A DNA stretch of 20,803 nt from a virus. Taxonomy: Duplodnaviria; Heunggongvirae; Uroviricota; Caudoviricetes. Position 1 is the first letter of the stretch. Each line of letters starts with the position of its first letter. The notes beneath the pieces were generated by a model. The model saw only the letters and a list, made by a program, of their open reading frames with translations, had not been told where the DNA came from and did no database searches. A program made the translations under genes and the position numbers. The DNA lies in IMG/VR virus record IMGVR_UViG_2579778622_000006, positions 1 through 20,803 of that record; one strand, 5' to 3'. Positions 1 to 18,002 of the stretch are shown here, one piece after another.

Positions 1-257
1 AAAAATAAAATAAATACAACAACCTTACGGTGTATTTTGATGTCATTAATGTGAAAAAATTCAATGATATCAAATGGTTTTGTAAAAACACATGGTTGTT
101 GTATCGCGTATTTGATGGCGTAACAGAAAGTGATTTTTAACTTTACCGCTCTGTAACTACGGATTATTCCATGCTGGCACGGAGAACGGCTACGGCATGA
201 CGCCACCCAGCCTATACAGAACAGTAAAGCCGATAAATTGTTAATCACGCGCAGCAA

Positions 258-452
258 TGCGTGTGATTTTTGCACACTTCCGGTTAACGGGTACGATGTC
301 CGGTTTGTTTGTACATTTTTTGCACATGTCCGGTTCGCAGAAAGCATGTTTTTATATTTTTCATATAGTTAACTTGCAGAGAAACCGGACATGGATCCCG
401 AAAAATTTTCATAAATAGTGAAAACGCGCGAGGTCGACGCCCCGTAACGGGT
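258..452 (-). other. cos: lambda-type cos site: cosN-like 12-mer (431-442, GGGCGTCGACCT on minus strand) plus cosB-like repeat region (266-392)
   Basis: Minus-strand read CCGTTACGGGGCGTCGACCTCGCGCGTTTTCACTATTTATGAAAATTTTT is near-identical to the lambda left-end cos as I recall it (GGGCGGCGACCTCGCGGGTTTTCGCTATTTATGAAAATTTTCCGG). Followed by an AT-rich stretch and repeated ATGTCCGGTT motifs (296-305, 326-335, inverted at 383-392). Confidence 0.7.
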
Positions 453-473
453 CCACATGCCGGAAAGGACCCG

Positions 474-497
474 CAAAAAAAGCCGGATTTCTCCGGC
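474..497 (-). terminator. rho-independent terminator ending the capsid operon
   Basis: Hairpin GCCGGA-tttc-TCCGGC (482-497) with an A-run at 474-481 on plus, giving a U-tract after the stem on minus. Lies 7 nt past the stop of the 504-917 gene. Confidence 0.6.
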
Positions 498-503
498 CTT
501 GTC

Positions 504-917
504 TCAGATGGTTTTCAGTATGCGATCGATGTTGCCGTCATCGACCGGGTTTCTGCCATCGTATGCCATGCCAGCTGATACGGCTTTCGGGCTGTGCATG
601 TCCATAAAGTTTTCAAAGGCTGAAGTAAGCTGTGGTGCAACCTTCGGGCGTTCCTGCTCTATGGTCATGCTAAGGATGCTTTTAGCCGTACCAACATCGA
701 TACAAGGCACGTTAGCCATTGCACGTAACAGCGGCTGGTAGTCGTCAGATTCATGAAGCGCCATAATCGCATCAGCGCGCTGCTTGTCCTGTTCTTCCAG
801 TTTGTTTAGTCGGTGTATGGCCTCGTAGGTTGATAAACCTCTGTCAGCCATTGCCCGCGCTTCGGCTTTAAATTTACTCGCCAGCGGTAGCGTCATGATA
901 CTTTCATTCGTTGCCAT
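504..917 (-). CDS. hypothetical protein, last gene of capsid operon (occupies the position of a lambda FI-like packaging protein)
   Basis: 137-aa ORF co-oriented with the capsid genes and followed by a terminator; protein-like acidic composition. No family recognised. Confidence 0.5.
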   Translation of the reverse strand: MATNESIMTLPLASKFKAEARAMADRGLSTYEAIHRLNKLEEQDKQRADAIMALHESDDYQPLLRAMANVPCIDVGTAKSILSMTIEQERPKVAPQLTSAFENFMDMHSPKAVSAGMAYDGRNPVDDGNIDRILKTI

Positions 918-929
918 CGTTCCCCCTGC

Positions 930-1265
930 TTATCGGGCCAGCGGCTGAACGGATACGCCGGAACCCGCAAAGGCGGCGCATTTTTTCGCATCGGTGTCGA
1001 CGCTGTCAGGCCAGTTAACGGCGGCAATATTGAATATCCCCGTTTTGTAACACTGTGCTGATTTCTGCTTTGACGTGTCCACGGGGTGCGAAGTCAGATA
1101 AACAGCTTTGCCAGATTCCTGACCATCCCACGCCTTAAACTCGCCATTGTCTGCCAGCATCAGCGGGGTAAATTCCTGAATAACGCCAGCATCAGCGGCA
1201 AAATGTACCAGCGTCGTGGATACCTGCTGGCTGCCTGCAAATAACTCAATATATGGAGCGTCCAT
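930..1265 (-). CDS. head decoration protein, lambda gpD family
   Basis: 111 aa. Shares TPLMLxD, AWDG, YKTG and AFAG motifs with recalled lambda gpD. GGGGGA RBS. Confidence 0.85.
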   Translation of the reverse strand: MDAPYIELFAGSQQVSTTLVHFAADAGVIQEFTPLMLADNGEFKAWDGQESGKAVYLTSHPVDTSKQKSAQCYKTGIFNIAAVNWPDSVDTDAKKCAAFAGSGVSVQPLAR

Positions 1266-1276
1266 AGAATCCCCCG

Positions 1277-2332
1277 TTAAGCAATTTTGACGGTAACAAA
1301 TTTGCGAATATCTGCCGGTACCGGCTGCGGTGCGCTGTGCGTCTGCACGTACTCAATCGCCGGATCGCCGTCCTCAATCCAGTTTTTCGGGTAGTACATG
1401 TTTTGCGTTGCGCCCGTTCTTACCGCTTCCTGATCCATAATCGCACCATAGGCCACCAGCCCTTTATTATTGGTGTTACCCAGGACCAGCAAATCAGGCT
1501 CAAGGAAATATTTTTCGGTGCCGTCGCTGTCAGTGTATTTGCCGGAATAGACGATAAGGGCCAGATCACCAAGATAGCCTTTAAAGCTCACCACTTCGCC
1601 CAGGTTTTTACAGGCCAGCTCGGCGGCGGATTCTGATCCACGGGAAAGATCGTACAGTTCACGGAATTTTTTAAAGCTGCGTAATGTGCGCCATACCTCA
1701 CCGCCCATAATCATGACGTTGGCGGGGCAACCTGCCTGATCAGCATAAAGCTCGATGTCATAGATTGGGTCGTGCATGTCTTTATCCTGCTGGGACCATT
1801 TTTTACCACTGGCCTGCTGTATGATGCAGTTTTCCGGTATTTTCCAGTCGATTTCATAGCGTTCTATGCCTTCGCCCTCAATGATGTTTTTTCCGGTCGT
1901 TACCGCATTCACCGCCAGCCATTCCACGCGCGCCTTAATGGCGTTTATCTGGCGGCGCATGTTGCCAGTAATCAGGCGCATACGGCGGTAAGTTGGATCG
2001 TTAAGCTGTGCCGGATCTTCTCCAGCCATGCGCATGATGGTCTTTGTTGGATCGATTTCGTGCTTTGGCTTCATGTAGCCAGGTTTAATCGTGCTGGTTT
2101 CGTACCCTTTATCGCGCTGGACCTGACTACCCACCATAGGCGAACAGAAAGCCGACATCGTAACCTCTTCAATGTCCAGGGTGTCCAGCATGATGTTTTG
2201 GGTGTTGAAGGTCGCCACGTTCGGGAAAAACAGCGTGGTAAACAGCGGACTAAATTTAAATTCCGAAATATCCCCGCGATTCAGGTACGCGAAAAGCTGG
2301 TTAGTTGTAAGTGCCGTTGCTTTGCCTGTCAT
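1277..2332 (-). CDS. major capsid protein, lambda gpE family
   Basis: 351 aa. Matches recalled lambda gpE in several blocks: EFKFSPLF, PGYMKPKHE, EDPAQLNDPTYRRMR, YPKNWIEDGDPA. GGAGG RBS. Confidence 0.9.
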   Translation of the reverse strand: MTGKATALTTNQLFAYLNRGDISEFKFSPLFTTLFFPNVATFNTQNIMLDTLDIEEVTMSAFCSPMVGSQVQRDKGYETSTIKPGYMKPKHEIDPTKTIMRMAGEDPAQLNDPTYRRMRLITGNMRRQINAIKARVEWLAVNAVTTGKNIIEGEGIERYEIDWKIPENCIIQQASGKKWSQQDKDMHDPIYDIELYADQAGCPANVMIMGGEVWRTLRSFKKFRELYDLSRGSESAAELACKNLGEVVSFKGYLGDLALIVYSGKYTDSDGTEKYFLEPDLLVLGNTNNKGLVAYGAIMDQEAVRTGATQNMYYPKNWIEDGDPAIEYVQTHSAPQPVPADIRKFVTVKIA

Positions 2333-2538
2333 TATTCACCTCCGTGAACCTGATTCATACCCAGCGCCGCACGTAAATAGGTACGCACCTGCCAGCCTGT
2401 TGACGGCTCAACCATCGCCAGCGGATCAAGTCCTGCCGCAATGCCTGCTTTTACATTCTGCTGGTGGCGTTCCTTGAGCGCCTCCACGATGTCGGGGCTT
2501 ATGTAGACCGTCACCCCGCCTTTTTTCTCTTCTGCCAT
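2332..2538 (-). CDS. hypothetical small protein, first gene of capsid operon
   Basis: 68-aa ORF with AGAGGA RBS; its stop overlaps the MCP start (TAATG), suggesting translational coupling. Confidence 0.5.
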   Translation of the reverse strand: MAEEKKGGVTVYISPDIVEALKERHQQNVKAGIAAGLDPLAMVEPSTGWQVRTYLRAALGMNQVHGGE

Positions 2539-2573
2539 AGTCAGAAATTCCTCTTTGACTTAAAAAATCATAA

Positions 2574-2623
2574 CTGGATGTTCATCCAGTCCTGATTATA
2601 ATCATGATTGCATTTTGCGCAAC
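2574..2623 (-). promoter_or_regulatory. candidate sigma70 promoter of capsid operon with a 16-bp palindromic operator
   Basis: On minus strand: -35 TTGCGC (2617-2622), 16-nt spacer, -10 TATAAT (2595-2600), then perfect palindrome CTGGATG-TT-CATCCAG (2574-2589) at the predicted start region. Confidence 0.35.
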
Positions 2624-2703
2624 AATATTGAGTTACGTTGCAAATTATGAAATGATTATCCCGATCATGTGTGCCAGTGCACCATAAAAAACCTCGTATA
2701 CAA

Positions 2704-2743
2704 AAGCCCGATAAGCCCCCTGTGACCTTATCGGGCTTTTTTT
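2704..2743 (+). terminator. strong intrinsic terminator hairpin on plus strand with no upstream plus-strand CDS
   Basis: 10-bp stem CCCGATAAG(G)/CTTATCGGG with an 11-nt loop, followed by TTTTTTT (2737-2743). Confidence 0.5.
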
Positions 2744-2748
2744 AGGCG

Positions 2749-2771
2749 TAAAAAAGCCGGATTGCTCCGGC
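2749..2771 (-). terminator. rho-independent terminator after the ProQ/FinO gene
   Basis: Hairpin GCCGGA-ttgc-TCCGGC (2756-2771) with an A-run at 2749-2755 on plus (U-tract on minus). Confidence 0.55.
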
Positions 2772-2796
2772 TTCGTCTCTTCATGTGGTCAGGGTT

Positions 2797-3381
2797 TTAT
2801 GCTTTCCGTACGCCCGAGGAACTGGCATTTTTCAGAATAATATTATGCCCTGCTGGTGGCTTACCGTTATGCTTATTTTCTGCCTTCATGTTTCTGCGCT
2901 CCTGCTGTTTTTTCTTCATCTCATCCAGTCGCTTCCCCGCGTTCAACTGGTGCTCCTGTGTCACCTCCCCGCACGGATGGCCTTTCAGGTCGTAACGCAC
3001 GCCACCAGCCATCAGGGAACGGTAATATCGCACTGAACTGACATAATACGCCAGCGTTGCGCGAAGCGCTCCCTGACCTAATGAAATACCTCTCGCAGTA
3101 ATATCCTCCATCAGGTCATCAAATATGCCAACCTTAAGCGGTCTGGGCGATTCCTGGCTGAAAAGTTCAGGCCAGAGCGCGGCAAGGCGTTCAACGCGTC
3201 TGATATTTTTTTTCCGGCTCTTTTCTGATTTGCGTTTTGCTGCCGTCTTCTGTTGTGTTTTCTGCTCGCGGCTCTGCTTTTGCGCTGGTGTGGTTTTATC
3301 CGGCTGTTCAGCCTCCTGCGTCTTTTTCTGCGGTGTGCCGTATATGCCTTTTGGTTTTCGGTTAATGGTCAGCTTTGTCAT
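2797..3381 (-). CDS. ProQ/FinO-domain RNA-binding protein with lysine-rich N-terminal tail
   Basis: 194 aa from the ATG at 3381 (GGGGGAG RBS). C-terminal PLKVGIFDDL...LRATLAYYVSSVRYYRSL...RYDLKGHPCGEV matches the recalled E. coli ProQ N-terminal FinO domain (PLKIGIFQDL...RVDLDGNPCGEL). Confidence 0.75.
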   Translation of the reverse strand: MTKLTINRKPKGIYGTPQKKTQEAEQPDKTTPAQKQSREQKTQQKTAAKRKSEKSRKKNIRRVERLAALWPELFSQESPRPLKVGIFDDLMEDITARGISLGQGALRATLAYYVSSVRYYRSLMAGGVRYDLKGHPCGEVTQEHQLNAGKRLDEMKKKQQERRNMKAENKHNGKPPAGHNIILKNASSSGVRKA

Positions 3382-3460
3382 GTTCTCCCCCTTTGTGCTG
3401 TTCCACCAGCGGCATCTGCTACCCCGTGTCGCTCCCGCTGGTGTCGTGTTTCCCCGCCTG

Positions 3461-3781
3461 TTAATAACCGTCATCATTTACGTTATCAGGGTAATCACGC
3501 CATATTTCATCAGTAAGCGACGGTAGCCCCATCTGTTGTATTGTCCTGTCTGCGGCCCTTCTGACTGCGTGAACATCATAACGGTTTTCAGGTATCGGGC
3601 GCTTTGCCTTCCTGATACATTCCCTTGCTCTCATTGCCGCAAGTTCTCTGTGCCTGTCTTCCTGAAGAGTAATCATCACATCCTGCCACCTTCTGGCAGC
3701 CCGTCGCCACAGTCCCCTGCTCTCGAGTTCTTCTGCTGTCGCGTCGCTTATTGTCCGGTTCTTCGGTGTGCTGTTGTTCAT
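3461..3781 (-). CDS. PerC-family-like transcriptional regulator
   Basis: 106-aa ORF containing AEELESRGLWRRAARRW, the motif I associate with PerC/Pch-type regulators. Assigned from memory of the motif only. Confidence 0.5.
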   Translation of the reverse strand: MNNSTPKNRTISDATAEELESRGLWRRAARRWQDVMITLQEDRHRELAAMRARECIRKAKRPIPENRYDVHAVRRAADRTIQQMGLPSLTDEIWRDYPDNVNDDGY

Positions 3782-3798
3782 GTTGCTCCCCGCCTGAT

Positions 3799-4209
3799 TC
3801 AGAAGGGTATATCATCTCCGTAGGGGTCATCGCCTCCCGCTGGTGGCTCATTCCCCTGTGTGCCTGTGGTTTTGCGTCTGTTCCCGCCATGACGTGCCGC
3901 ACGCGCACTGATTACGCTGTCTGCGATAACCTGCCAGCCCTGCCGCGTTTCCCCGTTCTGTCCGGTCCACTGGCTCACCTGCATGTTACCCGCCACGCTC
4001 AGGAGTTCACCTTTGCGGTGCTTTGCCAGTGCTTCGGCCTGTCTGCCAAACGCCAGCACAGATAACCACATCGTCGCCGTTCCGTCATCTGCCTGGCTGC
4101 ACGGAAGGGGGACCGCCATACTCGCCATCGCCATTTGTGTCCCCTTGCTGGTGGTCTTTAACTGCGGGTCAGCCACCAGCCGCCCGTAAGCCGCTATCTG
4201 TGCTGTCAT
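3799..4209 (-). CDS. ssb: single-stranded DNA-binding protein (short SSB)
   Basis: 136 aa with OB-fold-like core (WLSVLAFGRQAE...KGELLSVAGNMQVSQWTGQNGETR), a Gly-rich linker and the canonical acidic C-terminal tip DDIPF. Confidence 0.85.
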   Translation of the reverse strand: MTAQIAAYGRLVADPQLKTTSKGTQMAMASMAVPLPCSQADDGTATMWLSVLAFGRQAEALAKHRKGELLSVAGNMQVSQWTGQNGETRQGWQVIADSVISARAARHGGNRRKTTGTQGNEPPAGGDDPYGDDIPF

Positions 4210-4457
4210 GCTGTATGCTCTCCGGTTTTAACGTTGATGGTTGTCACCTGTTCCGCTCCGGCAATCTCCCGTTCTGTCAGCGTGGCAAAATTTGCCGCTA
4301 CCGTTGTCATGAATGCGCTTATCAGTTCGGGATGTGCTTTCGCGTATCCTTCTCCCGCGTGGCGGTCTATCGTTCTGATTGCCACCTTTAAGGCGTGCTC
4401 TGTCATGTCTAACGCTTTATATTTTGGCGCTGTCTTATCTCTGGTTTTTCTGTTCAT
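4206..4457 (-). CDS. hypothetical protein
   Basis: ORF 4206-4487; the upstream extension translates the iteron repeats (GEWWG), so the ATG at 4457 is preferred. Overlaps the ssb start. Confidence 0.4.
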   Translation of the reverse strand: MNRKTRDKTAPKYKALDMTEHALKVAIRTIDRHAGEGYAKAHPELISAFMTTVAANFATLTEREIAGAEQVTTINVKTGEHTA

Positions 4458-4458
4458 T

Positions 4459-4670
4459 CCCCACCACTCCCCACTTTTGCTCCCCACTTTTTAAATTCCC
4501 CACTTGCTCCCCACCTCGTTTTTTGAGTGAATCTAATGCTTTGTTTTTCATTGCGTTTTTTACTCCCCACTTTTTTGGATATATACAGGTGGGAAAGTGG
4601 GGAATTATGTTTCAATTTTGTTAAATTCCCCACTCTCCCCACTTTTACTACCCACTTTTTACAGTGGGTA
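4459..4670. repeat. iteron array, putative satellite replication origin
   Basis: At least 9 copies of TCCCCAC(TTTT) in direct orientation (4459, 4468, 4481, 4496, 4508, 4563, 4626, 4635, 4649) plus inverted copies (GTGGGAAAGTGGGGAA at 4588-4604; CAGTGGGTA at 4662-4670), flanking an AT-rich core (4570-4585). Sits immediately 3' of the helicase gene. Confidence 0.6.
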
Positions 4671-6074
4671 AACATCATCCCCATCGACACAAATCACGCC
4701 GTCTTTTTCCAGCTTGGACAGCCAGCGCCGGAAGTGCTTCATCTCATACCCCAGCTTTTTCATATCGTCGCGGAGAAGGGCGATAGTGCATGGCTCTTTG
4801 TGTGCCGTCCGCGTTCTGATGCACTGCCATAGCGCGGTATGGTTTTCCGTCTTGTTGCCTGCCTCCTCGATGCGCTCCAGTTCAACGGGAGAGCGCGGCT
4901 TATCAACCACCACCAGCGACGTGATTAACTCCCCGTCAGCGTCGGTAAAAAGCTCCACCACGCGTAAATCGTAGGCGGCCTCTTTCAGTTCCTCCGCGTC
5001 CTTCATTTTGGTGCAGGATATAACCAGGGCTTTACTGTCTGCACCTTCTCGGCGAATACGGTATTCAGCGTCCAGAGATGCACGAAATGCACTGGAACCA
5101 CGCGCCCCCTTTGTTTCATCCTTGCCGGAATGGTGGACCACCAGCACCGTGGCCCCTGTGCGTCGTTTCAGGTCGTCACATCCACGGATAAACGCCCCCA
5201 TATCCCGCGCGTCATTTTCATCATTACCGCCAAAGCAACGCGCCAGCGTATCCAGAATAATCATGCGTACCGGTTTACCCGTTTCCCGTTCAACCTGGCG
5301 GGAAGCGATAACCATTTCATCAACATCAAGCGGGGCTGCCGGAAAAATCGGGCGGTTTACCAGGTACAGATTTTTCACCCGTTCATCATTAACGATTTCC
5401 CATGCCTTGATACGACGGGGGACACCAATGCCACCTTCACCGACAACATACATCACCGAACCATGCGCCACCCTGCGGCCTCCCCAGTGGCGCCCCGTGG
5501 CAACATGACACGCCCAGGAACACGCAAGGAATGATTTATAGGAACCGCTCGCACCGTATGTGCTGCACAATGAATTAGCCGGAATCACGCCCTTAACGAC
5601 ATAATCAAGCTGTGTGTCGTATCCTGCAGATCCAATGCTCATGGGTAGCGTGGTTTTTCGCTGGCTGTATTGCTCATCAGTAAGTATTTCCCCGCGCTCT
5701 GCCTGTTCGCGGATCCGTTGCAGGTAGTCGCGCCATTCCTCCCGCTTCTGGCTGTGCATTCCCTCGGGGTAATAACTCGCATCCCGTACACCTGCCGCCG
5801 CCAGTTTTTGCCCGATGGCATTAATATTTGATGGCTTGATGTGGCCTGCCTTGTACAGCCGGACACAATAGCGACCATCGTCGATAATTTTCAGGTCTGC
5901 CAGTTCGTCAAGCTGACTGTCTCCCAGCCATACTGGCGGGACGTTATCGCCAGCAAGTCGCCCGTCCTGTTCCTGCCATTGTTTTGCGTGCGCCCAGGCA
6001 TCACTACCTGCAAAAATAATGACTTCGGTCATTTTGTTGTGTGGCTGTTTTTTTAAGTTCGGTGCCAGTTTCAT
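4659..6074 (-). CDS. replication protein: RecA-fold (AAA_25/DnaB-like) helicase with C-terminal winged-helix
   Basis: 471 aa. Walker A GASGSYKS; Walker B-like ILDTLARCF; VLVVHHSGKD motif typical of RepA/DnaB-like ATPases; C-terminal basic wHTH-like segment. Confidence 0.8.
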   Translation of the reverse strand: MKLAPNLKKQPHNKMTEVIIFAGSDAWAHAKQWQEQDGRLAGDNVPPVWLGDSQLDELADLKIIDDGRYCVRLYKAGHIKPSNINAIGQKLAAAGVRDASYYPEGMHSQKREEWRDYLQRIREQAERGEILTDEQYSQRKTTLPMSIGSAGYDTQLDYVVKGVIPANSLCSTYGASGSYKSFLACSWACHVATGRHWGGRRVAHGSVMYVVGEGGIGVPRRIKAWEIVNDERVKNLYLVNRPIFPAAPLDVDEMVIASRQVERETGKPVRMIILDTLARCFGGNDENDARDMGAFIRGCDDLKRRTGATVLVVHHSGKDETKGARGSSAFRASLDAEYRIRREGADSKALVISCTKMKDAEELKEAAYDLRVVELFTDADGELITSLVVVDKPRSPVELERIEEAGNKTENHTALWQCIRTRTAHKEPCTIALLRDDMKKLGYEMKHFRRWLSKLEKDGVICVDGDDVYPL

Positions 6075-6370
6075 TTTTTATCCCTGAATCCGTTAATCAT
6101 GGTTTTCATCTTCTGAATATTGGCGCGTGCTTTCTCCCTGCTGGTTGGTTTACTGCGGGGCGCTGCCTGTACCAGAGAAAAATCACGCCGGAACTGATAA
6201 ACAGGCATCACGCAGTCATATTCGTAGCCATCACGGCGGTAAGTGATGCGCCGTTCTGCCACGCCTTTAATCGTTACCGTACCGCCGTAGTTATCACGGA
6301 AAATATCGCCGGGACGGATTTCAGGCCGAGCGGGGCCGCTGGCAGTAAAGCCAGAATTTTTCTTTTTCAT
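6071..6370 (-). CDS. hypothetical protein
   Basis: 99-aa ORF with AGGAAA RBS; its stop overlaps the helicase start (ATGA). Confidence 0.5.
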   Translation of the reverse strand: MKKKNSGFTASGPARPEIRPGDIFRDNYGGTVTIKGVAERRITYRRDGYEYDCVMPVYQFRRDFSLVQAAPRSKPTSREKARANIQKMKTMINGFRDKK

Positions 6371-6374
6371 GGTT

Positions 6375-6575
6375 TTATTTTCCTGTCAGTGATTCCGGCT
6401 TTATTCCGGCGCGAATACAGGCTTCAGAAAAAAAAGCCAGAGAACCAATAACCTCATTATTTCTAAGGCGGCATTGCGATTTCACTTTCCCTTTATCCAG
6501 GAATATCAAAACGCGCCCCGTATAATCAGATGGCACATTAAGCACTACAGGTAAGTGCGCTTCATGATTATTCAT
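6375..6575 (-). CDS. hypothetical protein
   Basis: 66 aa from the ATG at 6575, preceded by a perfect AGGAGG (6585-6590). The longer ORF start at 6644 lacks an RBS. Confidence 0.5.
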   Translation of the reverse strand: MNNHEAHLPVVLNVPSDYTGRVLIFLDKGKVKSQCRLRNNEVIGSLAFFSEACIRAGIKPESLTGK

Positions 6576-6855
6576 GGCTAACCACCTCCTGGAATTTTCT
6601 TCTGTAACGCGCCTCTGCCACATATTCAGCATAGTCCGACGCAATATTGAGAATATCGCTACCCGTTCCTGAATGTTCGGCGGTTTCCAGTAAAAAACAT
6701 GCAGCTTTTACCATGTCAGCAACACATAACAGCGCAATATCTGTATCTTCCGGTGTGCCATCAAATTCCTGTTTCAGGGCATTAAAACGATCATCACGCA
6801 TAACCCCATATTCACAATCAGCAATCAGGATGGCTTTGGCCTCATTCAGTGCCAT
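6568..6855 (-). CDS. hypothetical acidic protein, first clear gene of the leftward replication operon
   Basis: Protein-like C-terminal 95 aa of the 6568-7809 ORF; the stop overlaps the next start by 8 nt. Start is uncertain because the ATG at 6855 has no clear RBS. Confidence 0.45.
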   Translation of the reverse strand: MALNEAKAILIADCEYGVMRDDRFNALKQEFDGTPEDTDIALLCVADMVKAACFLLETAEHSGTGSDILNIASDYAEYVAEARYRRKFQEVVSHE

Positions 6856-7009
6856 ATCAGCGGTAAGCTGTGCGTAGGCCAGCAAATGCGGGATTATTGC
6901 CCCTGTATATTCCGGCTCTCTGATAATGTGGTCGGATGTGTTGATTAAATAGTTTGTGCGAAAAATGCACCTGTAACCATCAGTTAACAACGGATATACA
7001 GGGGGGACC

Positions 7010-7180
7010 ATGAATGATAAGGGGGTGCCGTTTGATGTGCTCCTGCAAAAGCTGAATGCTGCACGCGCCGCAAGGGAACGTGAGCGCATGAGTAATAACC
7101 CTGTCCCTCCTGAATTACCTCGCCCTGAACATTTTCCGCTTGAGGATTTCATCAGGGGACGAATCCGAACAAAACGATAA
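7010..7180 (+). CDS. hypothetical small protein (56 aa)
   Basis: ATG preceded by a G-run; shares the motif FPLE(D/R)FI with the 7424-7618 ORF. Ambiguous: the opposite strand is one long open frame. Confidence 0.25.
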   Translation: MNDKGVPFDVLLQKLNAARAARERERMSNNPVPPELPRPEHFPLEDFIRGRIRTKR

Positions 7181-7231
7181 CCGCCGCCGTGATATGAGGC
7201 ATCACGACGCAATGCATTACAGGTGAGCACC

Positions 7232-7348
7232 ATGAACAAATCCATATTATCCCCCACAGTTCTGGACGTAAACACAAAGCAGCGACAGATATTATTACGC
7301 GCCGTCATTAAAGCCAGACACGAGAAATTAAACCAAATCTTAAAATAA
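7232..7348 (+). CDS. hypothetical small protein (38 aa)
   Basis: AGGTGA RBS 5 nt upstream of the ATG; amphipathic, protein-like sequence. Confidence 0.3.
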   Translation: MNKSILSPTVLDVNTKQRQILLRAVIKARHEKLNQILK

Positions 7349-7423
7349 GATACGCCGCTACCGCTGTAAGTCTTCATCAGAAACAGAAAACGCCAGAGCA
7401 GATGAGCACGGAGGTAACTCTTT

Positions 7424-7618
7424 ATGAAAATAAACGAATCAGGGGAAATTACCGAAGCCAGCGTGGTACGCCAGCGGAGGCGGGAACGACGGGTACGGCC
7501 CCCCGCGCCATCCGATAATTTCCCGCTTGAGCGCTTCATCAGTGAACGGCCCCGCATACGCTGGAACGGCACAACCCCATACCCCGAGGAGAGACAGACA
7601 AAAAACAAACAGCGATGA
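7424..7618 (+). CDS. hypothetical small basic protein (64 aa)
   Basis: GGAGGT RBS 8 nt upstream of the ATG; Arg-rich; FPLERFI motif paralogous to the 7010 ORF. Confidence 0.3.
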   Translation: MKINESGEITEASVVRQRRRERRVRPPAPSDNFPLERFISERPRIRWNGTTPYPEERQTKNKQR

Positions 7619-7897
7619 TGAAATCTGGAGGCCAATACCATCACGCAGCCATCAGGAGATTGCTGACGCGCTTCCTGTTCGCTGGTGGCCTCGATGGTAA
7701 TCACGCGCGGTTGTGCAGTGCTCAGGGCGATAAAACGCCACACAAAGGCCGTTTGTGTGTGCGCCAGGCGTGGGGTATGCTGTCTTACAGCCATAAAACT
7801 ACCTCTCATAACGGTTTGTGGTTAGAAGCCCCGTTACTGCTCCAACAGTGCGGGGCTTCGTCGTTTCAATTGCTGAATTGCATGTATCAGCCCTTGT

Positions 7898-7951
7898 GGT
7901 ATTCAGATTACGTTTTGGTGAATAACATTTCAAGTCTTTTTTGGTATTCAC
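7898..7951 (+). promoter_or_regulatory. candidate operator repeats upstream of the RHH gene
   Basis: TGGTATTCA at 7898-7906 and 7942-7950, with an inverted partner GGTGAATAA at 7916-7924 (TATTCA-N12-TGAATA dyad), in the AT-rich region upstream of the 7995 start. Confidence 0.35.
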
Positions 7952-7994
7952 TTTTGTATTACACTGCATCACGTTATTAATCGGAGGTGCAAAC

Positions 7995-8300
7995 ATGTCC
8001 ACGAGTTCTGTTAACAATAAGTCACAGCAACTGAATGCCAGATTTCCACATGAAGTAGTGAGTGGCATTGAGGCATCCCTACAGCCGGGGGAAACTAAAG
8101 CGAATTTTATAGTTACGGCTGTACGCGGAGAGATCGCCCGCCGCCAGGCAGAAGGAAGAGGAGAAAATCCCCTAGTTTCTTCGCTCGATGCACTGGCGCA
8201 GGTGGAAAAAATCGGTGTCAAAGCTGCCGAGGAGATCGGGCAACTCGTCGCCGTTGCGCGTGAAGAACTCCAGCGGCGCAAAGCCAAAGAGCAGGAATAG
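7995..8300 (+). CDS. ribbon-helix-helix-like DNA-binding protein with coiled-coil C-terminus
   Basis: 101 aa from the ATG at 7995 (GGAGGTG RBS). N-terminal beta-strand/helix pattern (LNARFPHEVVSGIEAS...KANFIVTAVRGEIARR) typical of RHH/Arc-type regulators; followed by a terminator. Confidence 0.6.
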   Translation: MSTSSVNNKSQQLNARFPHEVVSGIEASLQPGETKANFIVTAVRGEIARRQAEGRGENPLVSSLDALAQVEKIGVKAAEEIGQLVAVAREELQRRKAKEQE

Positions 8301-8331
8301 CCCACCAGCAAGCCACCACACTGATCACATT

Positions 8332-8360
8332 GGCCACCGTGACAGGTGGCCTTTGTTTTG
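8332..8360 (+). terminator. rho-independent terminator after the RHH gene
   Basis: GGCCACC-gtgaca-GGTGGCC followed by TTTGTTTTG. Confidence 0.6.
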
Positions 8361-8454
8361 CCTGTTATCCGGCAATTGTGGAGCTTCGTCACACGGTTGA
8401 TATAATTCCCCTGCTCAGATTCATTTTTTGCGCGGCAGGTAAATTGTTCAGAAA

Positions 8455-8482
8455 GGCGGCTCCTTATCGGGGCCGCTTTTTT
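8455..8482. terminator. second hairpin with T-tract between the convergent RHH and alpA genes
   Basis: GCGGC-tccttatcgg-GCCGC followed by TTTTTT (8477-8482) on plus; possibly bidirectional. Confidence 0.4.
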
Positions 8483-8508
8483 CGTGTTTGTCATATCTGT
8501 GATACCCG

Positions 8509-8715
8509 TTAAGCAGCCGTTCCGCGTGCTTCCTGTTCGCGTTCTTTCTGCCAGGCCAACACATCATCCTCATACCATCCGCGACGGCGTAAACCAACGC
8601 GAAAACCCTGCGGAAATTCTCCGGCGTTGATCATGCTTTGCAGCGTGCTGTCTGCCTTGATGTGGATAATTTTTTTTACTTCCTGGCGAAAGATAATTTT
8701 TCTGATTGCTTCCAT
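8509..8715 (-). CDS. alpA: AlpA-family phage transcriptional regulator / excisionase-like HTH protein
   Basis: 68 aa; pattern IIFRQEVKK...GEFPQGFRVGLRRRGWYEDDVLAW matches the AlpA/Vis HTH_17 architecture. Confidence 0.8.
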   Translation of the reverse strand: MEAIRKIIFRQEVKKIIHIKADSTLQSMINAGEFPQGFRVGLRRRGWYEDDVLAWQKEREQEARGTAA

Positions 8716-8848
8716 CGTGATTTACCTTGTGAATCCGGTGTATTCCGGTGACAAATACGGTAAATCATCGGATATGGGTAAAAACAGTTCCCACCGTTTT
8801 TAAACGGTATACACCGTTTTTTATATTGATGATTTGAAATGGAATTAT

Positions 8849-8872
8849 AAAAAAAGCGGCATTTCTGCCGCT
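8849..8872 (-). terminator. rho-independent terminator after the orf83/int transcript
   Basis: AGCGGCA-gaaa-TGCCGCT on minus followed by TTTTTTT (plus 8849-8855 is an A-run); 10 nt past the stop at 8883. Confidence 0.55.
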
Positions 8873-8882
8873 TCCAGGATTG

Positions 8883-9134
8883 TTACCGCCATTTTTTGGG
8901 CCTGCCTCCGATCTTCATAGATGCCGGACGTACGACCTTATCAATACTTACCGCCAGATTTCTGGAAGCGCCACGGGATACCAGAAAATCTACTACCTGT
9001 TTTTTTGATGGGGCCGTCGTCCTGTCCTCCGGATCGTAGGTTGACCAAAATTCATGCTGAACCATCAGGGCCAGTTGCAGCCCGTCGCAATTGCATCTGA
9101 TATTTTTTTGCATCTTAACGGTTTCATGTTTCAC
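8883..9134 (-). CDS. hypothetical protein between int and alpA
   Basis: 83-aa ORF (GTG at 9134 or ATG at 9113) with a terminator directly downstream. Start uncertain. Confidence 0.45.
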   Translation of the reverse strand: MKHETVKMQKNIRCNCDGLQLALMVQHEFWSTYDPEDRTTAPSKKQVVDFLVSRGASRNLAVSIDKVVRPASMKIGGRPKKWR

Positions 9135-9211
9135 GGCCTTGTCGTTAAATTTGATGCAATTATACGACGGTTTTACATGGTTTTCGTAGTTTTTACTGGT
9201 TTTCTGTACAG

Positions 9212-10453
9212 CTACACGGCTCGGATACCCCTTTTACCACTGGCGAGGGTTACGCCCGTCGCCGCAGCCTCGACAAATTCGCCCCACCAGCGCATCAGCA
9301 CGATGCGTTTTTCTATGTAGTTGCTCCGGTTGTATGCCCGTCTAACTTCGTTGGTGTCGACGTGGGCAAGTGCCGCCTCTATTACGTCCGGCTCGAATCC
9401 TTCCTCGTTCGCTGCTGTGCTGAATATGGCGCGTAATCCATGAGACACCAGCACGCCAGCGAATCCCATACGCCGCAATGCTGCGTTAGCTGTCTGGCTG
9501 TTCATCGGCTGCTGTGGGTCTTTCAGACTTGGGAAAACGTAATTGCGGTGGTGGCTGATTGGTTTCATGGCCTCCAGCACCGCCATAGCCTGACCGGAAA
9601 GCGGGATAACGTGATCCCTGCGCATCTTCATGCGTCCGGCAGGTATCGTCCATTGCTTCGCGTCCAGGTTGATTTCATCCCACCGCGTTGATGACGCTTC
9701 GGCGGGACGGGTTACGGTCAGTAACTGCCATTCAATCAGTAATCTGGTCTGCCGTTCTGTTGCCGATACTGATAAAGCCTGCATAAGCTCGGGCAGCTGT
9801 TCGGGGCGGATTGTTGGCATATGTTTTTTTACAGGTGAGGGAAACGCCTTACGCACATTCATAGCCGGATTGGCATCAATCAGCCCACTGTTGGCGGCGT
9901 AATCCATTACCTCATTAACGCGCTGTAAAACCCGCTTGAGTGTTTCCAGGTTGCCGCGCTCCTTGATGGGGGTAAGCACTTCAACGAACCTTCGGGCGGT
10001 GAGGGTATCTATTGGCGTGTTGCCGATGAACGGGAATACATATTTATCCAGCGAACGCCAGATGTCTTTAATCGTGTTGGGGGCCAGATTCTGGCTGATT
10101 TTCACCTGGTACCATGCCGCCGCCACATTTTCGAACGTGTTCCCTTGTCTTCGGGCCTCTGTCTCTCTTTTTTGCCTCTCGTGGTCCTGCGGGTCAGTTC
10201 CGGCACTGATTAACGTCCTGTACTCGCTACGGCGTTTTCTGGCATCAGCCAGGGAAACATCTTCAAGCGATCCAAAACTCAGCAATATTCTTTTTTTGTC
10301 CGATGGTCGGTAGTAGGAAAATCTCCAGAGTTTTGATCCAGACGGTTTGACCAGGAGAAAAAGCCCTCCGCCGTCCTGCAGGGTGTACTCCTTTTGCGCT
10401 GGTCTGGCTGCTTTGATCTGCACTGTGGTTAATGGGTGTGTTTTTCTCGCCAT
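9212..10453 (-). CDS. int: tyrosine recombinase, P4-type integrase
   Basis: N-terminal arm-binding-like domain (LTTVQIKAARPAQKEYTLQDGGGLFLLVKPSGSKLWRFSYY), catalytic C-terminus with R...HGLR and terminal RAYNRSNY (Tyr). Adjacent to the tRNA 3' remnant. ATG at 10453 preferred over the GTG at 10471. Confidence 0.9.
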   Translation of the reverse strand: MARKTHPLTTVQIKAARPAQKEYTLQDGGGLFLLVKPSGSKLWRFSYYRPSDKKRILLSFGSLEDVSLADARKRRSEYRTLISAGTDPQDHERQKRETEARRQGNTFENVAAAWYQVKISQNLAPNTIKDIWRSLDKYVFPFIGNTPIDTLTARRFVEVLTPIKERGNLETLKRVLQRVNEVMDYAANSGLIDANPAMNVRKAFPSPVKKHMPTIRPEQLPELMQALSVSATERQTRLLIEWQLLTVTRPAEASSTRWDEINLDAKQWTIPAGRMKMRRDHVIPLSGQAMAVLEAMKPISHHRNYVFPSLKDPQQPMNSQTANAALRRMGFAGVLVSHGLRAIFSTAANEEGFEPDVIEAALAHVDTNEVRRAYNRSNYIEKRIVLMRWWGEFVEAAATGVTLASGKRGIRAV

Positions 10454-10485
10454 ATGTCTATGATTCCACACGAAAAAACAGGGTT

Positions 10486-10539
10486 TTAGTTATACGGCTT
10501 TAGTTATACGTCAGCCCGTATAACTAAACGTATAACTAA
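10486..10539. repeat. integrase arm-type site candidates: four 11-mers TTAGTTATACG (two direct, two inverted)
   Basis: Direct copies at 10486-10496 and 10500-10510; inverted copies CGTATAACTAA at 10517-10527 and 10529-10539; between the int start and the att core. Confidence 0.5.
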
Positions 10540-10590
10540 AAAATCCGGCTGATAGCTTATAAATCCGGTGATGTTCGGTGACTAAAAAAC

Positions 10591-10625
10591 ATAAAAAAAC
10601 CCGCCAATCAAGTGATTAGCGGGTT
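10591..10625 (-). terminator. hairpin with U-tract downstream of the tRNA 3' remnant (weak terminator)
   Basis: AACCCGC/GCGGGTT stem with a 14-nt loop; the A-run at 10593-10599 on plus gives a U-tract on minus. Confidence 0.35.
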
Positions 10626-10671: not shown

Positions 10672-10720
10672 TGGTCGGCACGAGAGGATTTGAACCTCCG
10701 ACCCCCGACACCCCATGACG
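10672..10720 (-). other. tRNA-Pro (GGG-type) 3'-end fragment, 49 nt, not an intact gene; integration (att) junction
   Basis: Minus-strand read CGTCATGGGGTGTCGGGGGTCGGAGGTTCAAATCCTCTCGTGCCGACCA equals the anticodon-loop-to-CCA portion of E. coli tRNA-Pro as recalled; the sequence 5' of it cannot form the acceptor or D arm. Confidence 0.65.
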
Positions 10721-11857: not shown

Positions 11858-13036
11858 TTAGCTGGCTTTAATTTCTCCATGGGGAACGACAACCCAATCT
11901 ATATGATTTTGCGTGTAGATCTTGGTTGACTTCGCATCGCTGTGCGCCATTCGTCCTTGTGGATCGATACCCTGCTGATCGAATAGATGCGCTGCTAGTG
12001 CTCGAATTTCGTGAAAGGTTGGTCTTTCATCCATTGGTAGATTGTCGCATAAACCTAGTTTGTCCCGTGTAGCTGAAAACGACCTACTCAAATAGTCCGG
12101 TGCAACTTGAGTAGGATGTGAAACCTCTTTGCTGCGTTTAACTTGGCGTTCTGGGATCCTGTGAACGACAAACGGACTGGCCACATTATCTCGGCTATCG
12201 TCAATTATCCGTTTCAACTCTTCACCAATTGGTATTGCAACGTGTGACGCCTCTTTTTGTTGCACTTTTTGCCTGTGGATGTAAAGCGTCCCATATATGC
12301 CATTTTGTGGTTGTTCGAACCAGACACATCCACATATACCGTCTTTAGGTTCGCGAATTGAGTAACGGATTCGCGATACTTCGAGTCGTGCATGTGTAGT
12401 CTGCAATGCTAGGTCCATTGCTGTTCTTAACCATGGTGCAGCGGCCTGCCTGATAGCTATAAAATGCTCGAGTGACAGGCGCCGTCTTTTCTTCTCATCA
12501 GTCCTACGCATTTTTTTTCTGATGGCCGGGTTATCCAGCATTAGTGATTCATCGACCGCATAAGAGAACAACTTTTTAAGAAAGCTGACCTTTCTGTTCT
12601 GCACATTTGCGGATGCGCTGGCATGATATTTGTTGATGTAGGTATTAACGTGTTCAAGTTCGATATCGCATGCCGGAACATTTACGAAAAACGCTTTTAC
12701 GCGTAGAGCGTCATTTTTCCAGTCATCTAAGGTGCTCTGGGAAGGACGTTCGTCTTCGATAATTCGGGCCATTATGTGATCAACATGTTCAGCAAATGGT
12801 TTTGCTTCTCCGATAACACCGCCAGATTCTCTAATAAGATTATCTACTGATGGAGATAATTCTGGTCGCATCCTCAGGTTGTACTCTCTGGCGATTGCAA
12901 TGGCTATTGCCCTATCCTTACCTATATTTTTCTTCTTTCCGGTAATAAGTGTGAATTTATAAACACCTCGATCTTTATCAAAAATCAGATAATCAGGAAG
13001 ATGTCTGTATTCTTTTTTACGTGGCCTTGCCGCCAT
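11858..13036 (-). CDS. int: tyrosine integrase, lambda Int family
   Basis: Aligns to recalled lambda Int in several blocks (LSLEHFIAIRQAA..WLRTAMDLA vs LTADEYLKIYQAA..WLRLAMELA; RPTFHEIRALAAHLF vs PPTFHELRSLSARLY). ATG at 13036 with GAGGGGTGA RBS; the ORF-track start at 13042 is a GTG. Confidence 0.9.
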   Translation of the reverse strand: MAARPRKKEYRHLPDYLIFDKDRGVYKFTLITGKKKNIGKDRAIAIAIAREYNLRMRPELSPSVDNLIRESGGVIGEAKPFAEHVDHIMARIIEDERPSQSTLDDWKNDALRVKAFFVNVPACDIELEHVNTYINKYHASASANVQNRKVSFLKKLFSYAVDESLMLDNPAIRKKMRRTDEKKRRRLSLEHFIAIRQAAAPWLRTAMDLALQTTHARLEVSRIRYSIREPKDGICGCVWFEQPQNGIYGTLYIHRQKVQQKEASHVAIPIGEELKRIIDDSRDNVASPFVVHRIPERQVKRSKEVSHPTQVAPDYLSRSFSATRDKLGLCDNLPMDERPTFHEIRALAAHLFDQQGIDPQGRMAHSDAKSTKIYTQNHIDWVVVPHGEIKAS

Positions 13037-13038
13037 GG

Positions 13039-13248
13039 TCACCCCTCATTTATTAACTTGCGAACAGCTTGACTAACCATTGAGTCGACTCCCCATTTTT
13101 CTGTTTCGCAGACAAAAACAGAACCGTCCACGATACGCCCCATGAGCAGACCGTTCTCGACCCAGCGTTTTATCGTTCGGTTGTCAGGAATTGAGCCATT
13201 AGAGAATTCACGGCGTCCCCATTGGCTCGCTTTCATTAGTTTTGCCAT
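13039..13248 (-). CDS. xis: excisionase (Xis-like)
   Basis: 69 aa from the ATG at 13248 (GGAGAAA RBS). Pattern ASQWGRREF...RTIKRWVENGLL...DGSVFV resembles lambda Xis (LQEWNARQ...ETVRRWVRE). Lies immediately upstream of int. Confidence 0.7.
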   Translation of the reverse strand: MAKLMKASQWGRREFSNGSIPDNRTIKRWVENGLLMGRIVDGSVFVCETEKWGVDSMVSQAVRKLINEG

Positions 13249-15153: not shown

Positions 15154-15828
15154 TTAGGCTTTGATTTTGTATCTTCTTGGTTTTCCTGAGAAAATTACTG
15201 TACCAATTATAGAGCAATTACCGTTGATCTTAATGTAAGGCTCAGGCCAGTTTGGGTTTAATGCTTTGAGATAACGCTGTGTTCCATCTTCTATCAATCG
15301 CTTGAAGGTGGTTTCGCCTGTATCGTGCATCAACGCAATAACGTCGTCACCGTGGCAAGCAGGGACTTCAGGATCAACAAAAATCATGTCTCCCGGGCGG
15401 TACTCATCAATCATTGAATCACCAATCACCCGCAAGATATAAGTCATTTCGCCACAGGGTACAGGGCAGGGATACGTTTCCGCTGTGCTCAAATCAACCT
15501 CAGAATAACCAACTTCTTTCCATGCTCCGGCCTGTACCCATGATATGACAGGAACTAACGTAATTTGTTTGTTAGTGATTGAAACATCAGGTTTTTTTGT
15601 GATGTTTGTTGTCTGGTGTTCTTGATCAAGCCATCCGACAGGCAGGTCGAAGCATTTTTCGATGTGCCGTGCCATGCTGTCACCGATATTTTTAGTGGCG
15701 CCATCCCCCATAAACCTGCTGGTTTGGGTTGGCTCGCGATCAATCATGGTGGCAAAGGAAGAATTCCCGCCAACACCATCTCTCAGTTTTCTGGCGTTAG
15801 ACCGCCGGATGTCATGGACTGTTTTCAT
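15154..15828 (-). CDS. cI: CI-like prophage repressor with S24 (LexA-type) autopeptidase domain
   Basis: 224 aa. C-terminal S24 signature with catalytic Ser in VIGDSM and Lys in TFKRL; N-terminal HTH-type region; divergent from the cro-like gene across palindromic operators; no strong SD. Confidence 0.85.
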   Translation of the reverse strand: MKTVHDIRRSNARKLRDGVGGNSSFATMIDREPTQTSRFMGDGATKNIGDSMARHIEKCFDLPVGWLDQEHQTTNITKKPDVSITNKQITLVPVISWVQAGAWKEVGYSEVDLSTAETYPCPVPCGEMTYILRVIGDSMIDEYRPGDMIFVDPEVPACHGDDVIALMHDTGETTFKRLIEDGTQRYLKALNPNWPEPYIKINGNCSIIGTVIFSGKPRRYKIKA

Positions 15829-16150: not shown

Positions 16151-16714
16151 ATGAGGCTAACCGTGGGTAAGCATCACTGGAAAGTAAAAAAACAGCCTGA
16201 GTGGTATGTGAAAGCGGTCAGAAAAACTATCGCGGCGTTGCCGGGTGGTTATGCTGAGGCTGCTGACTGGCTGGATGTAACAGAGAACGCATTATTTAAC
16301 CGCCTTCGTGCAGATGGCGATCAGATTTTCCCGCTGGGATGGGCAATGATTTTGCAACGTGCTGGTGGCACTCACTTCATTGCTGACGCTGTGGCGCAGT
16401 CTGCAAATGGCGTCTTTGTGTCTCTTCCTGATATCGAGGATGTGGACAACGCCGATATTAACCAGCGCTTGCTGGAAGTCATTGAACAGATTGGCAGTTA
16501 TTCCAAACAGATTCGTTCGGCAATCGAAGACGGTGTGGTGGAACCGCATGAGAAGACAGCAATTAACGACGAGCTGTACCTGTCAATTTCGAAGCTGCAG
16601 GAGCATGCAGCACTGGTCTACAAAATTTTTTGCGTTTCAGAAAGTAATGACGCCCGCGAGTGTGCAGCTCCGGGCGCCGTGGCGTGTCGTGACTGTGGAG
16701 AAACTAACGCATGA
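16151..16714 (+). CDS. hypothetical early protein (position of a CII-like regulator)
   Basis: 187-aa ORF. The ATG at 16151 lacks an SD; the GTG at 16163 has a GAGG RBS. Stop overlaps the next ORF start (ATGA). Confidence 0.5.
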
Positions 16715-17058: not shown

Positions 17059-18000
17059 ATGAGCACTAAATTAACCGGCTATGTATGGGATGGTTGCGCT
17101 GCATCAGGCATGAAGTTATCCAGCGTGGCAATTATGGCCCGCCTGGCTGATTTCAGTAATGACGAAGGTGTGTGCTGGCCATCAATTGAAACCATTGCCC
17201 GCCAGATTGGCGCGGGGATGAGTACCGTCAGAACGGCTATCGCACGGCTGGAAGCAGAAGGCTGGTTAACGCGTAAGGCGCGTCGCCAGGGTAACCGCAA
17301 TGCGTCGAATGTTTATCAGCTTAACGTTGCGAAGCTTCAGGCAGCGGCATTTTCTCAACTGTCAGATTCTGACCCGTCAAAATCTGACGCATCAAAATCT
17401 GACCCGTCAAAATTTGATGCGTCGAAATCTGGCAAAAAAGCGGGTTTTCACCCGTCAGAATCTGGCGGGGATCCGTCAGTAAAATCAAAACATGATCCGT
17501 CAGATAAAAATACTTCTCGTCCGGACGCTTCGCAACCGGACACGCAGACGGCTGAACAGGAGTTTTTAACTCGCCATCCTGATGCGGTTGTATTCAGCCC
17601 TAAAAAGCGCCAGTGGGGAACGCAGGATGATTTGACCTGCGCACAGTGGCTCTGGAAAAAAATCATCGCCCTGTACGAGCAGGCCGCCGAATGTGACGGC
17701 GAGGTGGTTCGTCCCAAAGAACCGAACTGGACAGCCTGGGCAAACGAAATTCGCCTGATGTGTGTGCAGGATGGTCGTACTCACAAACAAATCTGCGAGA
17801 TGTACAGCCGCGTCAGCCGCGATCCGTTCTGGTGCCGTAACGTGCTCAGCCCGTCGAAGTTGCGGGAAAAATGGGATGAGCTTTCCCTGCGCTTATCACC
17901 GTCCGTCAGCACGTACACCGAAAAACGCGAAGACCCGTACTTCAAATCCAGTTACGACAACGTGGACTACAGCCAGATCCCGGCAGGATTCAGGGGGTGA
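17059..18000 (+). CDS. replication initiation protein (lambda O-like; N-terminal HTH origin-binding domain)
   Basis: 313 aa. N-terminal HTH-like domain (VAIMARLADFSNDEGVCWPSIETIARQIGAGMSTVRTAIARLEAEGWL), a repeat-encoded linker and a C-terminal domain; iterons inside the gene. Confidence 0.7.
   Translation: MSTKLTGYVWDGCAASGMKLSSVAIMARLADFSNDEGVCWPSIETIARQIGAGMSTVRTAIARLEAEGWLTRKARRQGNRNASNVYQLNVAKLQAAAFSQLSDSDPSKSDASKSDPSKFDASKSGKKAGFHPSESGGDPSVKSKHDPSDKNTSRPDASQPDTQTAEQEFLTRHPDAVVFSPKKRQWGTQDDLTCAQWLWKKIIALYEQAAECDGEVVRPKEPNWTAWANEIRLMCVQDGRTHKQICEMYSRVSRDPFWCRNVLSPSKLREKWDELSLRLSPSVSTYTEKREDPYFKSSYDNVDYSQIPAGFRG
17361..17465 (+). repeat. iteron array inside the O-like gene (putative prophage ori)
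   Basis: Four tandem 15-bp units TCTGAC(C/G)C(G/A)TCAAAA at 17368-17427, plus degenerate copies to about 17465, followed by an A-rich stretch; encodes SDPSK/SDASK pentapeptide repeats. Confidence 0.5.
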
Positions 18001-18002
18001 TC

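Follow-up and report, generated by a model that had tools for sequence, protein, structure and literature searches.

Why a phage satellite should carry genes for a capsid protein and a head decoration protein, with no portal, protease or terminase gene beside them, is the question raised by an operon in IMG/VR virus record IMGVR_UViG_2579778622_000006 (Caudoviricetes). The window analysed here is the whole stretch of 20,803 nucleotides (nt) of that record, and all coordinates are positions in it. The list of open reading frames (ORFs) contains four tightly spaced ORFs of the same direction on the minus strand within 504–2538, namely a gene for a protein of 68 amino acids (aa) at 2332–2538, the first of the operon, a 351-aa coat gene of the lambda gpE family at 1277–2332, a 111-aa decoration gene of the lambda gpD/phage 21 SHP family at 930–1265, and a 137-aa gene at 504–917. 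The stop codon of the 68-aa gene overlaps the ATG of the coat gene by 1 base, the two being translationally coupled, and the remaining intergenic gaps are 11 and 12 nt. A first-pass annotation of this DNA had placed the four-gene operon between a satellite replication module and a cos site, and had noted that the coat gene (E) precedes the decoration gene (D), the reverse of the lambda order Nu3-D-E; the ORFs and the position of cosN (431–442) bear this out. The operon is very probably the late capsid operon of a classical phage-inducible chromosomal island (PICI) of the EcCICFT073 type, an accessory module with a role limited to certain helpers or conditions, in an island copy that is packaged via a phage-type cosB.

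The operon together with its control region, its terminator and the first cos matches EcCICFT073 in blastn with 93.7% nucleotide identity over 2377 bp. The four proteins are 91 to 96% identical to those of EcCICFT073, and gene order and gene lengths are equal in CFT073. The operon is the c1498–c1501 block of EcCICFT073, the prototype Gram-negative PICI, and is thus already known and not novel. The 68-aa gene was assigned to c1498 and the 137-aa gene to c1501 from the consecutive numbering; the coat and decoration genes are c1499 and c1500, designated as capsid protein and head decoration protein by Fillol-Salom (2018; PMC6092414). The view of the first-pass annotation that such a gene set is not described has to be withdrawn, since the block is published, c1499 and c1500 are named in that paper, and PDB entry 3BQW (“putative capsid protein of prophage”) is the CFT073 coat, identical to the EcCICFT073 protein at 351/351 residues. 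The assignment to a phage satellite was upheld by the PICI architecture, the att repeats and the identity to EcCICFT073. Over positions 1–10600 the window agrees at 100% with an island in the chromosome of E. coli B771. Capsid genes were reported for 21 of the 29 reference Gram-negative PICIs (PMC10111431), and the EcCICFT073 capsid homolog is covered in a review by Dokland (PMC6893505).

Helper-driven induction, packaging and high-frequency transfer have been demonstrated experimentally for EcCICFT073 only. Deletion of c1499 or c1500 left both the transfer of that island and its interference with lambda unchanged, and the EcCICFT073 DNA packaged with lambda was phage-sized, with no small DNA band (PMC6092414). 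In the synthetic islands c1498-c1501::cas9 and c1498-c1501::melA the cargo replaces exactly the four-gene block, and transfer by phi80 persists; in another published island c1499 was replaced by cat. When genes were cloned singly, lambda was blocked by c1503 (RppA) alone, and no gene of the c1498–c1502 type inhibited it. According to the published model, the island enters helper capsids through Rpp-TerS. Others have thus shown that the island can do without the c1498–c1501 block in its induction, in packaging into lambda or phi80 heads of phage size, in transfer and in interfering with lambda; the independence of transfer from the block is solid. Since deletion and replacement islands still transfer, the block is not the satellite's obligatory route into particles. 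In the constructs assayed in three papers (PMC6092414, PMC10530653, PMC10460865) the markers and cargo of EcCICFT073 were always placed inside the block (c1501::tetA, c1499::cat, c1498-c1501::cargo), so that no assay of capsid size or composition in them was made on an intact operon.

The 351-aa protein matches Pfam PF03864 with an E-value of 2.4e-50 and 171.9 bits (cut-off 22.9) and aligns with lambda gpE across its full length at 43% identity (E = 1e-93). In the PDB it finds 3BQW (E = 2.5e-230) and 7VI9 (E = 1.7e-81). It is the major capsid protein of the satellite, a member of the lambda gpE family with the HK97 fold. Similarly, the 111-aa protein matches PF02924 (E = 1.7e-17, 64.1 bits, cut-off 29.1), shows 36% identity to lambda gpD and finds 1TD0, the SHP of phage 21 (E = 4.6e-13), and 1C5E (E = 3.9e-9) in the PDB; it is a satellite head decoration protein of the gpD/SHP family. 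The similarity to gpE and gpD that the first-pass annotation had proposed thus holds in alignment. The closest of 411 phage homologs of the coat protein is 47% identical to it, and the nearest ones occur in PhiR12-type phages.

The 137-aa protein appears, from profile and sequence matches, to be a truncated homolog of Nu3-type scaffolds, referred to below as mini-Nu3. A search of PHROGs assigned it to phrog_1999 (E = 8e-61) and matched it to the C-terminus of phrog_53, the gpC-type protease/scaffold family (E = 9e-8). The profile of its own family, phrog_1999, is matched in turn by residues 117–200 of lambda Nu3 (E = 2.7e-26) and residues 355–438 of gpC (E = 1.5e-25). A phmmer search of 1.84 billion proteins returned nine matches in all, one of them P0041, a Nu3-like protein of 195 aa (E = 6.9e-6). 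The alignment reveals two scaffold repeats and a C-terminal tail in common with Nu3; the shared part amounts to the C-terminal ~85 residues of Nu3, without its N-terminal ~115 residues. The protein may accordingly be capable of scaffolding, that is, of coat binding and procapsid assembly. The first-pass annotation had described the operon as lacking portal, protease, scaffold and terminase genes: the portal, the protease and the terminase are absent, and the scaffold has to be struck from that list because the 137-aa gene encodes a homolog of the Nu3 C-terminal part. The family profile gave no match in the PDB, tblastn of the protein against 50,697 phage records gave none either, and a search of NCBIfam with all four operon proteins returned nothing. 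In a literature search no paper connecting Nu3 with PICIs was found. The name “phage head-tail connector protein”, given to this family in some NCBI entries, received no support, and the protein was rejected as an Rpp since it has no PDB match, while true RppA matches 6HLK.

The 68-aa protein, 94% identical to its CFT073 copy, belongs to phrog_3255, a family of unknown function, and forms a narrow enterobacterial family. Its AlphaFold2 (AF2) model is beta-alpha-alpha with a predicted local distance difference test score (pLDDT) of 76, for which Foldseek found nothing in the PDB under E = 2. Lambda gpW, likewise of 68 aa, was tried as a relative and discarded: the two do not align, and gpW falls into other PHROGs.

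Selection and gene content were surveyed in 80 related IMG/VR loci, whereas cassette and layout counts refer to 60 related loci. Across E. coli, Salmonella and Edwardsiella the satellite coat proteins are 63–73% identical to each other vs. 43–47% to phage gpE, and the decoration proteins 50–65% vs. 31–38% to their phage counterparts. The coat of the Edwardsiella satellite is 48% identical to that of the lambda-like prophage surrounding it. On these identities, the satellite coat and decoration proteins constitute an old satellite-specific lineage. The coat gene is intact in all 80 loci. The ratio of nonsynonymous to synonymous polymorphism (pN/pS) in these loci is 0.15 for the coat, 0.105 for the decoration, 0.30 for the 137-aa and 0.32 for the 68-aa gene, and the pairwise ratio of nonsynonymous to synonymous substitutions (dN/dS) of the coat gene ranges from 0.07 to 0.15. 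The coat and decoration genes are under purifying selection. No portal, protease or terL gene was found within the island in the 80 loci, lambda-type matches being located outside it only. The core common to the genera is 68aa-E-D. In E. coli MFDS1022581, an otherwise intact relative, the decoration gene is frameshifted (L007, 2533–2867), so the module decays occasionally. Some relatives are embedded in head genes of lambda-like prophages: one in Edwardsiella tarda (L089, 810–11120) sits in the portal gene, and those in Salmonella (L091 and L092) sit in terL. In such embedded relatives the satellite E-D pair and the helper D-E pair are only a few kb apart.

The control region of the operon lies at 2562–2622 on the minus strand. 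Read by eye, it comprises a weak −35 element TTGCGC (2622–2617), a 16-nt spacer and a −10 element TATAAT (2600–2595), followed by a 32-bp palindrome, AATCAGGACTGGAT-GAAC-ATCCAGTTATGATT, with a T6 run (2597–2562); a ribosome-binding site, AAGAGGA, can be read at 2555–2549 on the same strand. Folded as RNA, the palindrome forms a hairpin of −15.9 kcal/mol (z = −3.3). The alignment shows that the region is almost unchanged among four PICIs whose upstream genes differ, with the −10 element invariant. The promoter with a palindromic operator, as proposed by the first-pass annotation, stands in part: the two elements are legible and the palindrome is conserved, but a consensus scan called no promoter, and the palindrome may serve as an operator or as a 5′ terminator. 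Nothing similar to the control region occurs in the 50,697 phage records, and the idea that it was copied from a late promoter of a phage was rejected. The beta-alpha-alpha model of the 68-aa protein brought up a ribbon-helix-helix regulator of the palindrome, a role that is not claimed for it, as Foldseek gave no match. Between the upstream ProQ/FinO gene and the operon, two terminator hairpins occupy 2702–2773 (minus strand). One consists of GCCGGAGCAATCCGGC and T6 (about 2750–2773) and the other, AAAAGCCCGATAAG/CTTATCGGGCTTTT (2702–2740), is bidirectional; both are kept in the PICI alignment and would be expected to insulate the operon from the ProQ/FinO gene. At the other end, the operon's own terminator, which the first-pass annotation had correctly recognized, is situated at 475–498 on the minus strand, immediately 3′ of the 137-aa gene. 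It is a hairpin, GCCGGA-GAAA-TCCGGC, with T7, and is kept in the CFT073 and DEC9B copies. A terminator scan did not list it; folding confirmed the hairpin (−19.1 kcal/mol, z = −2.5).

The cos site follows at 286–470 on the minus strand, with a cosQ-like left flank, cosN at 431–442 and a phage-type cosB at 286–430. The cosN, GGGCGTCGACCT, is of the lambda type with one mismatch to lambda and has lambda-like flanks. This cos/cosB shares 86.6% identity with the cos that precedes terS in a lambdoid prophage of EDL933, and the cos region shares 89.4% with that of PhiR12-type lambdoid phages. Of rppA, tblastn detects only the last 22 codons (146–211, minus strand; RppA residues 123–144), the RppA query having been verified against PDB 6HLK (E = 5e-31). 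The window's island therefore does not have the intact rpp beside a PICI-specific cosB that marks Rpp-dependent cos PICIs. Its rppA-less junction recurs in 14 of 5426 genomes. In EcCICFT073 rppA is flanked by two inverted cosN sites, and of the 60 related loci, 33 have a Nu1-like TerS gene as the cassette enclosed by the cos sites, 18 have rppA and 8–9 have none. Because rppA has been lost, direct recognition by a helper TerS is inferred: most likely, to judge by its similarities, the window's copy is packaged via TerS recognition of the phage-type cosB by a helper of the PhiR12 or EDL933-prophage type. As side observations, an inverted cosN pair flanks a 512-bp segment with AT-rich filler (window 141–442; L001, 14907–15442), and both cosN copies carry the same G-to-T variant, which suggests a concerted change or a helper-specific cosN. 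In the IMG/VR relatives the cassette position, between the 137-aa gene and a 93-aa gene, is swappable. The cassette-less segment is seen in both orientations (L073 vs. L088), and therefore the inverted cos repeats appear to mediate inversion.

How could an accessory capsid module of this kind operate? We assume joint assembly of the coat with its own decoration protein and the mini-scaffold, the mini-scaffold guiding the coat via the C-terminal coat-binding part that it has in common with Nu3; this assembly would take place on the portal and with the protease of a helper of the lambda type. The importance of the module would be restricted to certain helpers or conditions, under which it might, for example, alter the size or composition of the capsid or substitute for an interrupted coat gene of the helper. 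Several observations weigh against this account. No experiment places the operon proteins in any particle, the EcCICFT073 DNA is phage-sized with lambda, and phi80 transfer survives removal of the whole block; any assembly role is therefore non-essential and so far without a phenotype. The link to Nu3 consists of profile and sequence matches. It rests on sequence profiles because hhalign gave a weak result with lambda Nu3 as a lone sequence (E = 0.013, probability 3%) and the AF2 model, all-helical, is of low confidence (pLDDT 64). The mini-Nu3 gene is also outside the conserved core because the Edwardsiella relative does not have it; the E. coli copies do, and Salmonella is uncertain. The left flank of the island was read from strain B771 and is inferred for the genome of the window. 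Finally, the closest relative of the prophage next to the island, in strain LP50-1, has an HK97-type and not a lambda-type head, along with a P27-family TerS and a contractile tail.

More ambitious readings of the operon have to be compared with the accessory module. The 68-aa, coat and decoration genes, with or without mini-Nu3, might be a working shell kit that forms satellite-specific, possibly smaller capsids on the portal and protease of a suitable lambda-type helper, the null phenotypes being explained by the markers inside the block and by multimers in lambda or phi80 heads; this seems rather unlikely. It is distinctly unlikely that a shell of its own, mounted on the portal, protease, scaffold and terminase of the helper, is the normal route of spread, a strategy intermediate between remodelling and capsid-forming PICIs such as the first-pass annotation had envisaged. 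The coat gene does come with genes for its cognate decoration protein and a mini-scaffold, all under purifying selection, and the satellite coat is ~45% identical to helper coats, which argues against simple mixing; capsid size went unscored with an intact module owing to the c1501::tetA or c1499::cat markers, and PmCI172, which has a capsid homolog too, makes small capsids. However, islands without c1499, c1500 or c1498–c1501 transfer at equal or higher frequency, the DNA packaged with lambda is phage-sized, the published Rpp-TerS model uses helper capsids, and phi80 moves the cas9 and melA islands; as the main route of spread the strategy is not supported. The operon could also be a device that interferes with capsid size or assembly in helpers other than lambda and phi80, by analogy with Ccm of SaPIbov5 and CpmB of SaPI1. 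The 137-aa protein retains only the C-terminal part of Nu3, in line with the CpmB-like logic outlined in the introduction of the paper on capsid-forming PICIs, SaPIbov5 likewise has a coat homolog, and the module is conserved. Such a device is rather unlikely, given that no c1498–c1502-type gene inhibits lambda when cloned singly, that interference stays in place in Δc1499 and Δc1500 islands, and that no small DNA band appears with lambda.

A further proposal, made in PMC10111431 with 201 satellites in gene E, is that the satellite genes serve as a backup coat set while an embedded satellite interrupts a head gene of its helper (E, B or A). The relatives of Edwardsiella and Salmonella and several IMG/VR relatives inside portal or terL genes of lambda-like prophages would fit it. 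For the operon in question it is nevertheless very doubtful: the window's island and EcCICFT073 occupy chromosomal sites outside helper genes, the genes broken by the embedded relatives are portal or terL, for which the satellite has no substitute, and the satellite coat is just 48% identical to the coat of its own helper. That the operon is a relic left by a prophage or by a capsid-forming PICI, in decay and now without function, is suggested by the lack of a phenotype, by the frameshifted decoration gene of one genome and by the placing of cargo at the module's site in synthetic islands. Purifying selection speaks against it, with the coat gene intact in 80/80 loci and pN/pS of 0.10–0.15 for coat and decoration, as do the retention of the lineage in three genera and the conserved control region, and we regard it as highly improbable. 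There is next to no probability that the operon is part of an ordinary prophage head module whose remainder lies left of the window, even though E and D homologs, and nothing more, are present. The island of B771, 100% identical within the window, extends ~620 bp beyond the left end of the window, and its flank there consists of a second, inverted cosN, the 93-aa gene, att and then the chromosomal yejO; there is therefore no portal, protease or terminase gene left of the operon, the point on which the first-pass annotation had asked for a check. Sixty related loci have a layout like that of the B771 flank.

The remainder of the island conforms to the plan of a Gram-negative PICI. It measures ~11.2 kb, has the proL (tRNA-Pro) site as its neighbour and forms a tandem with a lambdoid prophage; in B771 the 16-bp att direct repeats are 11.16 kb apart. 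The integrase gene (9212–10453; ORF and annotation) lies at the end of the island, followed inwards by an AlpA-like helix-turn-helix (HTH) protein at 8509–8715, annotated as an HTH regulator only, and a RepA-type helicase with an AAA_25 domain at 4659–6074 (Pfam). Iterons containing CTCCCCAC at 4448–4661, directly downstream of the helicase gene, are likely to be the satellite replication origin. Annotation and Pfam also identify DUF4222, SSB and PerC genes, and no tail, lysis, portal, protease or large-terminase gene in the whole island. An integrase at the end with att repeats, the size, the regulator, replicase and iterons, the absence of tail, lysis, portal and terL genes, and a lambda-type cosN with phage-type cosB and a second inverted cos together place the island among Gram-negative PICIs.

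The ProQ/FinO gene that the first-pass annotation had seen upstream of the operon is indeed there, at 2797–3381, between PerC and the operon. Its longest ORF, 2797–3477, has a 32-codon N-terminal extension beyond the RefSeq start. Since EcCICFT073 is without it and 1 of 80 IMG/VR relatives has it, the gene is a rare accessory insertion. An Icd-like gene at 7624–7870 is a frameshifted pseudogene according to the annotation of the identical B771 copy, and a 413-aa ORF listed at 6568–7809 looks spurious.

To the right of the island the window is unlike B771 and retains only the 3′ ~48 nt of tRNA-Pro (about 10672–10719); ARAGORN and Rfam found no tRNA because this 3′ part alone is present. From 10.75 to 20.8 kb follows the early arm of a lambdoid prophage, with a lambda-type integrase (11858–13042), an S24 CI-like repressor (15154–15828), CII (16151–16714), an O-like HTH protein (17059–18000), a PerC-domain protein (17997–18491) and KilA-N (19840–20682). 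The early arm begins after the partial tRNA-Pro, so the satellite and the prophage stand in tandem at proL. This prophage was considered as a helper and turned out to be not obviously cos-compatible, as judged from its LP50-1 relative, its own late genes lying beyond the window.

Among known systems EcCICFT073 is the nearest. In addition to the operon, the window's island has in common with it the downstream 93-aa gene and the plan of int, alpA-like gene, DUF4222, replicase with ori, SSB and PerC. It differs in having a RepA-type helicase where EcCICFT073 has a primase, another integrase and att site (beside proL) and the extra ProQ/FinO gene, in the loss of rppA down to the 22-codon remnant and the G-to-T change in cosN, and in the phage-type cosB of its first cos, which in CFT073 belongs to cos2. 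With the lambda head genes C/Nu3-D-E it shares the coat (43%), the decoration protein (36%), homology to the C-terminal third of the scaffold, and cosN with its flanks; unlike lambda, the operon has the order E-D-mini-Nu3 and is without protease domain, portal, terminase, W, FI and FII. The capsid-forming PICI EcCIEDL933 likewise has an HK97-fold coat on the satellite and a similar left arm (int, alpA, rep). Capsid-forming PICIs, however, add a portal, protease, head-tail connectors, HNH, TerS and TerL, none of which the window's island has, and they demonstrably build small capsids; by its gene content the island is not one of them. Ccm of SaPIbov5 is also a satellite coat homolog, and CpmB of SaPI1 is a satellite scaffold with the coat-binding end of the helper scaffold, comparable to the 137-aa protein and Nu3; neither has a sequence relationship to the proteins described here. 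Both redirect capsid size, whereas EcCICFT073 with lambda showed no size change, and the window's operon adds a cognate decoration protein. PmCI172, a Pasteurella PICI, resembles the operon in having a coat homolog without other head genes, the coat family being likened by description only; it differs in its Mu-like helper and in the small capsids observed.

The feature is real and stands out clearly from chance, but it has already been published for Gram-negative PICIs, and no new satellite strategy is defined by it. The question that it raises is why a coat/decoration pair is kept under purifying selection in at least three enterobacterial genera, yet is dispensable in the assays carried out so far. 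The mini-Nu3, the ~45% identity between satellite and helper coats even when the satellite is embedded in the helper, and the position of the published markers inside the operon are added here, and make this question directly testable. Should the module turn out to form or remodel capsids with certain helpers, the classical and the capsid-forming PICIs would be the ends of a continuum, and the insertion of cargo in place of the block, common in engineered PICIs, would need to be re-examined.

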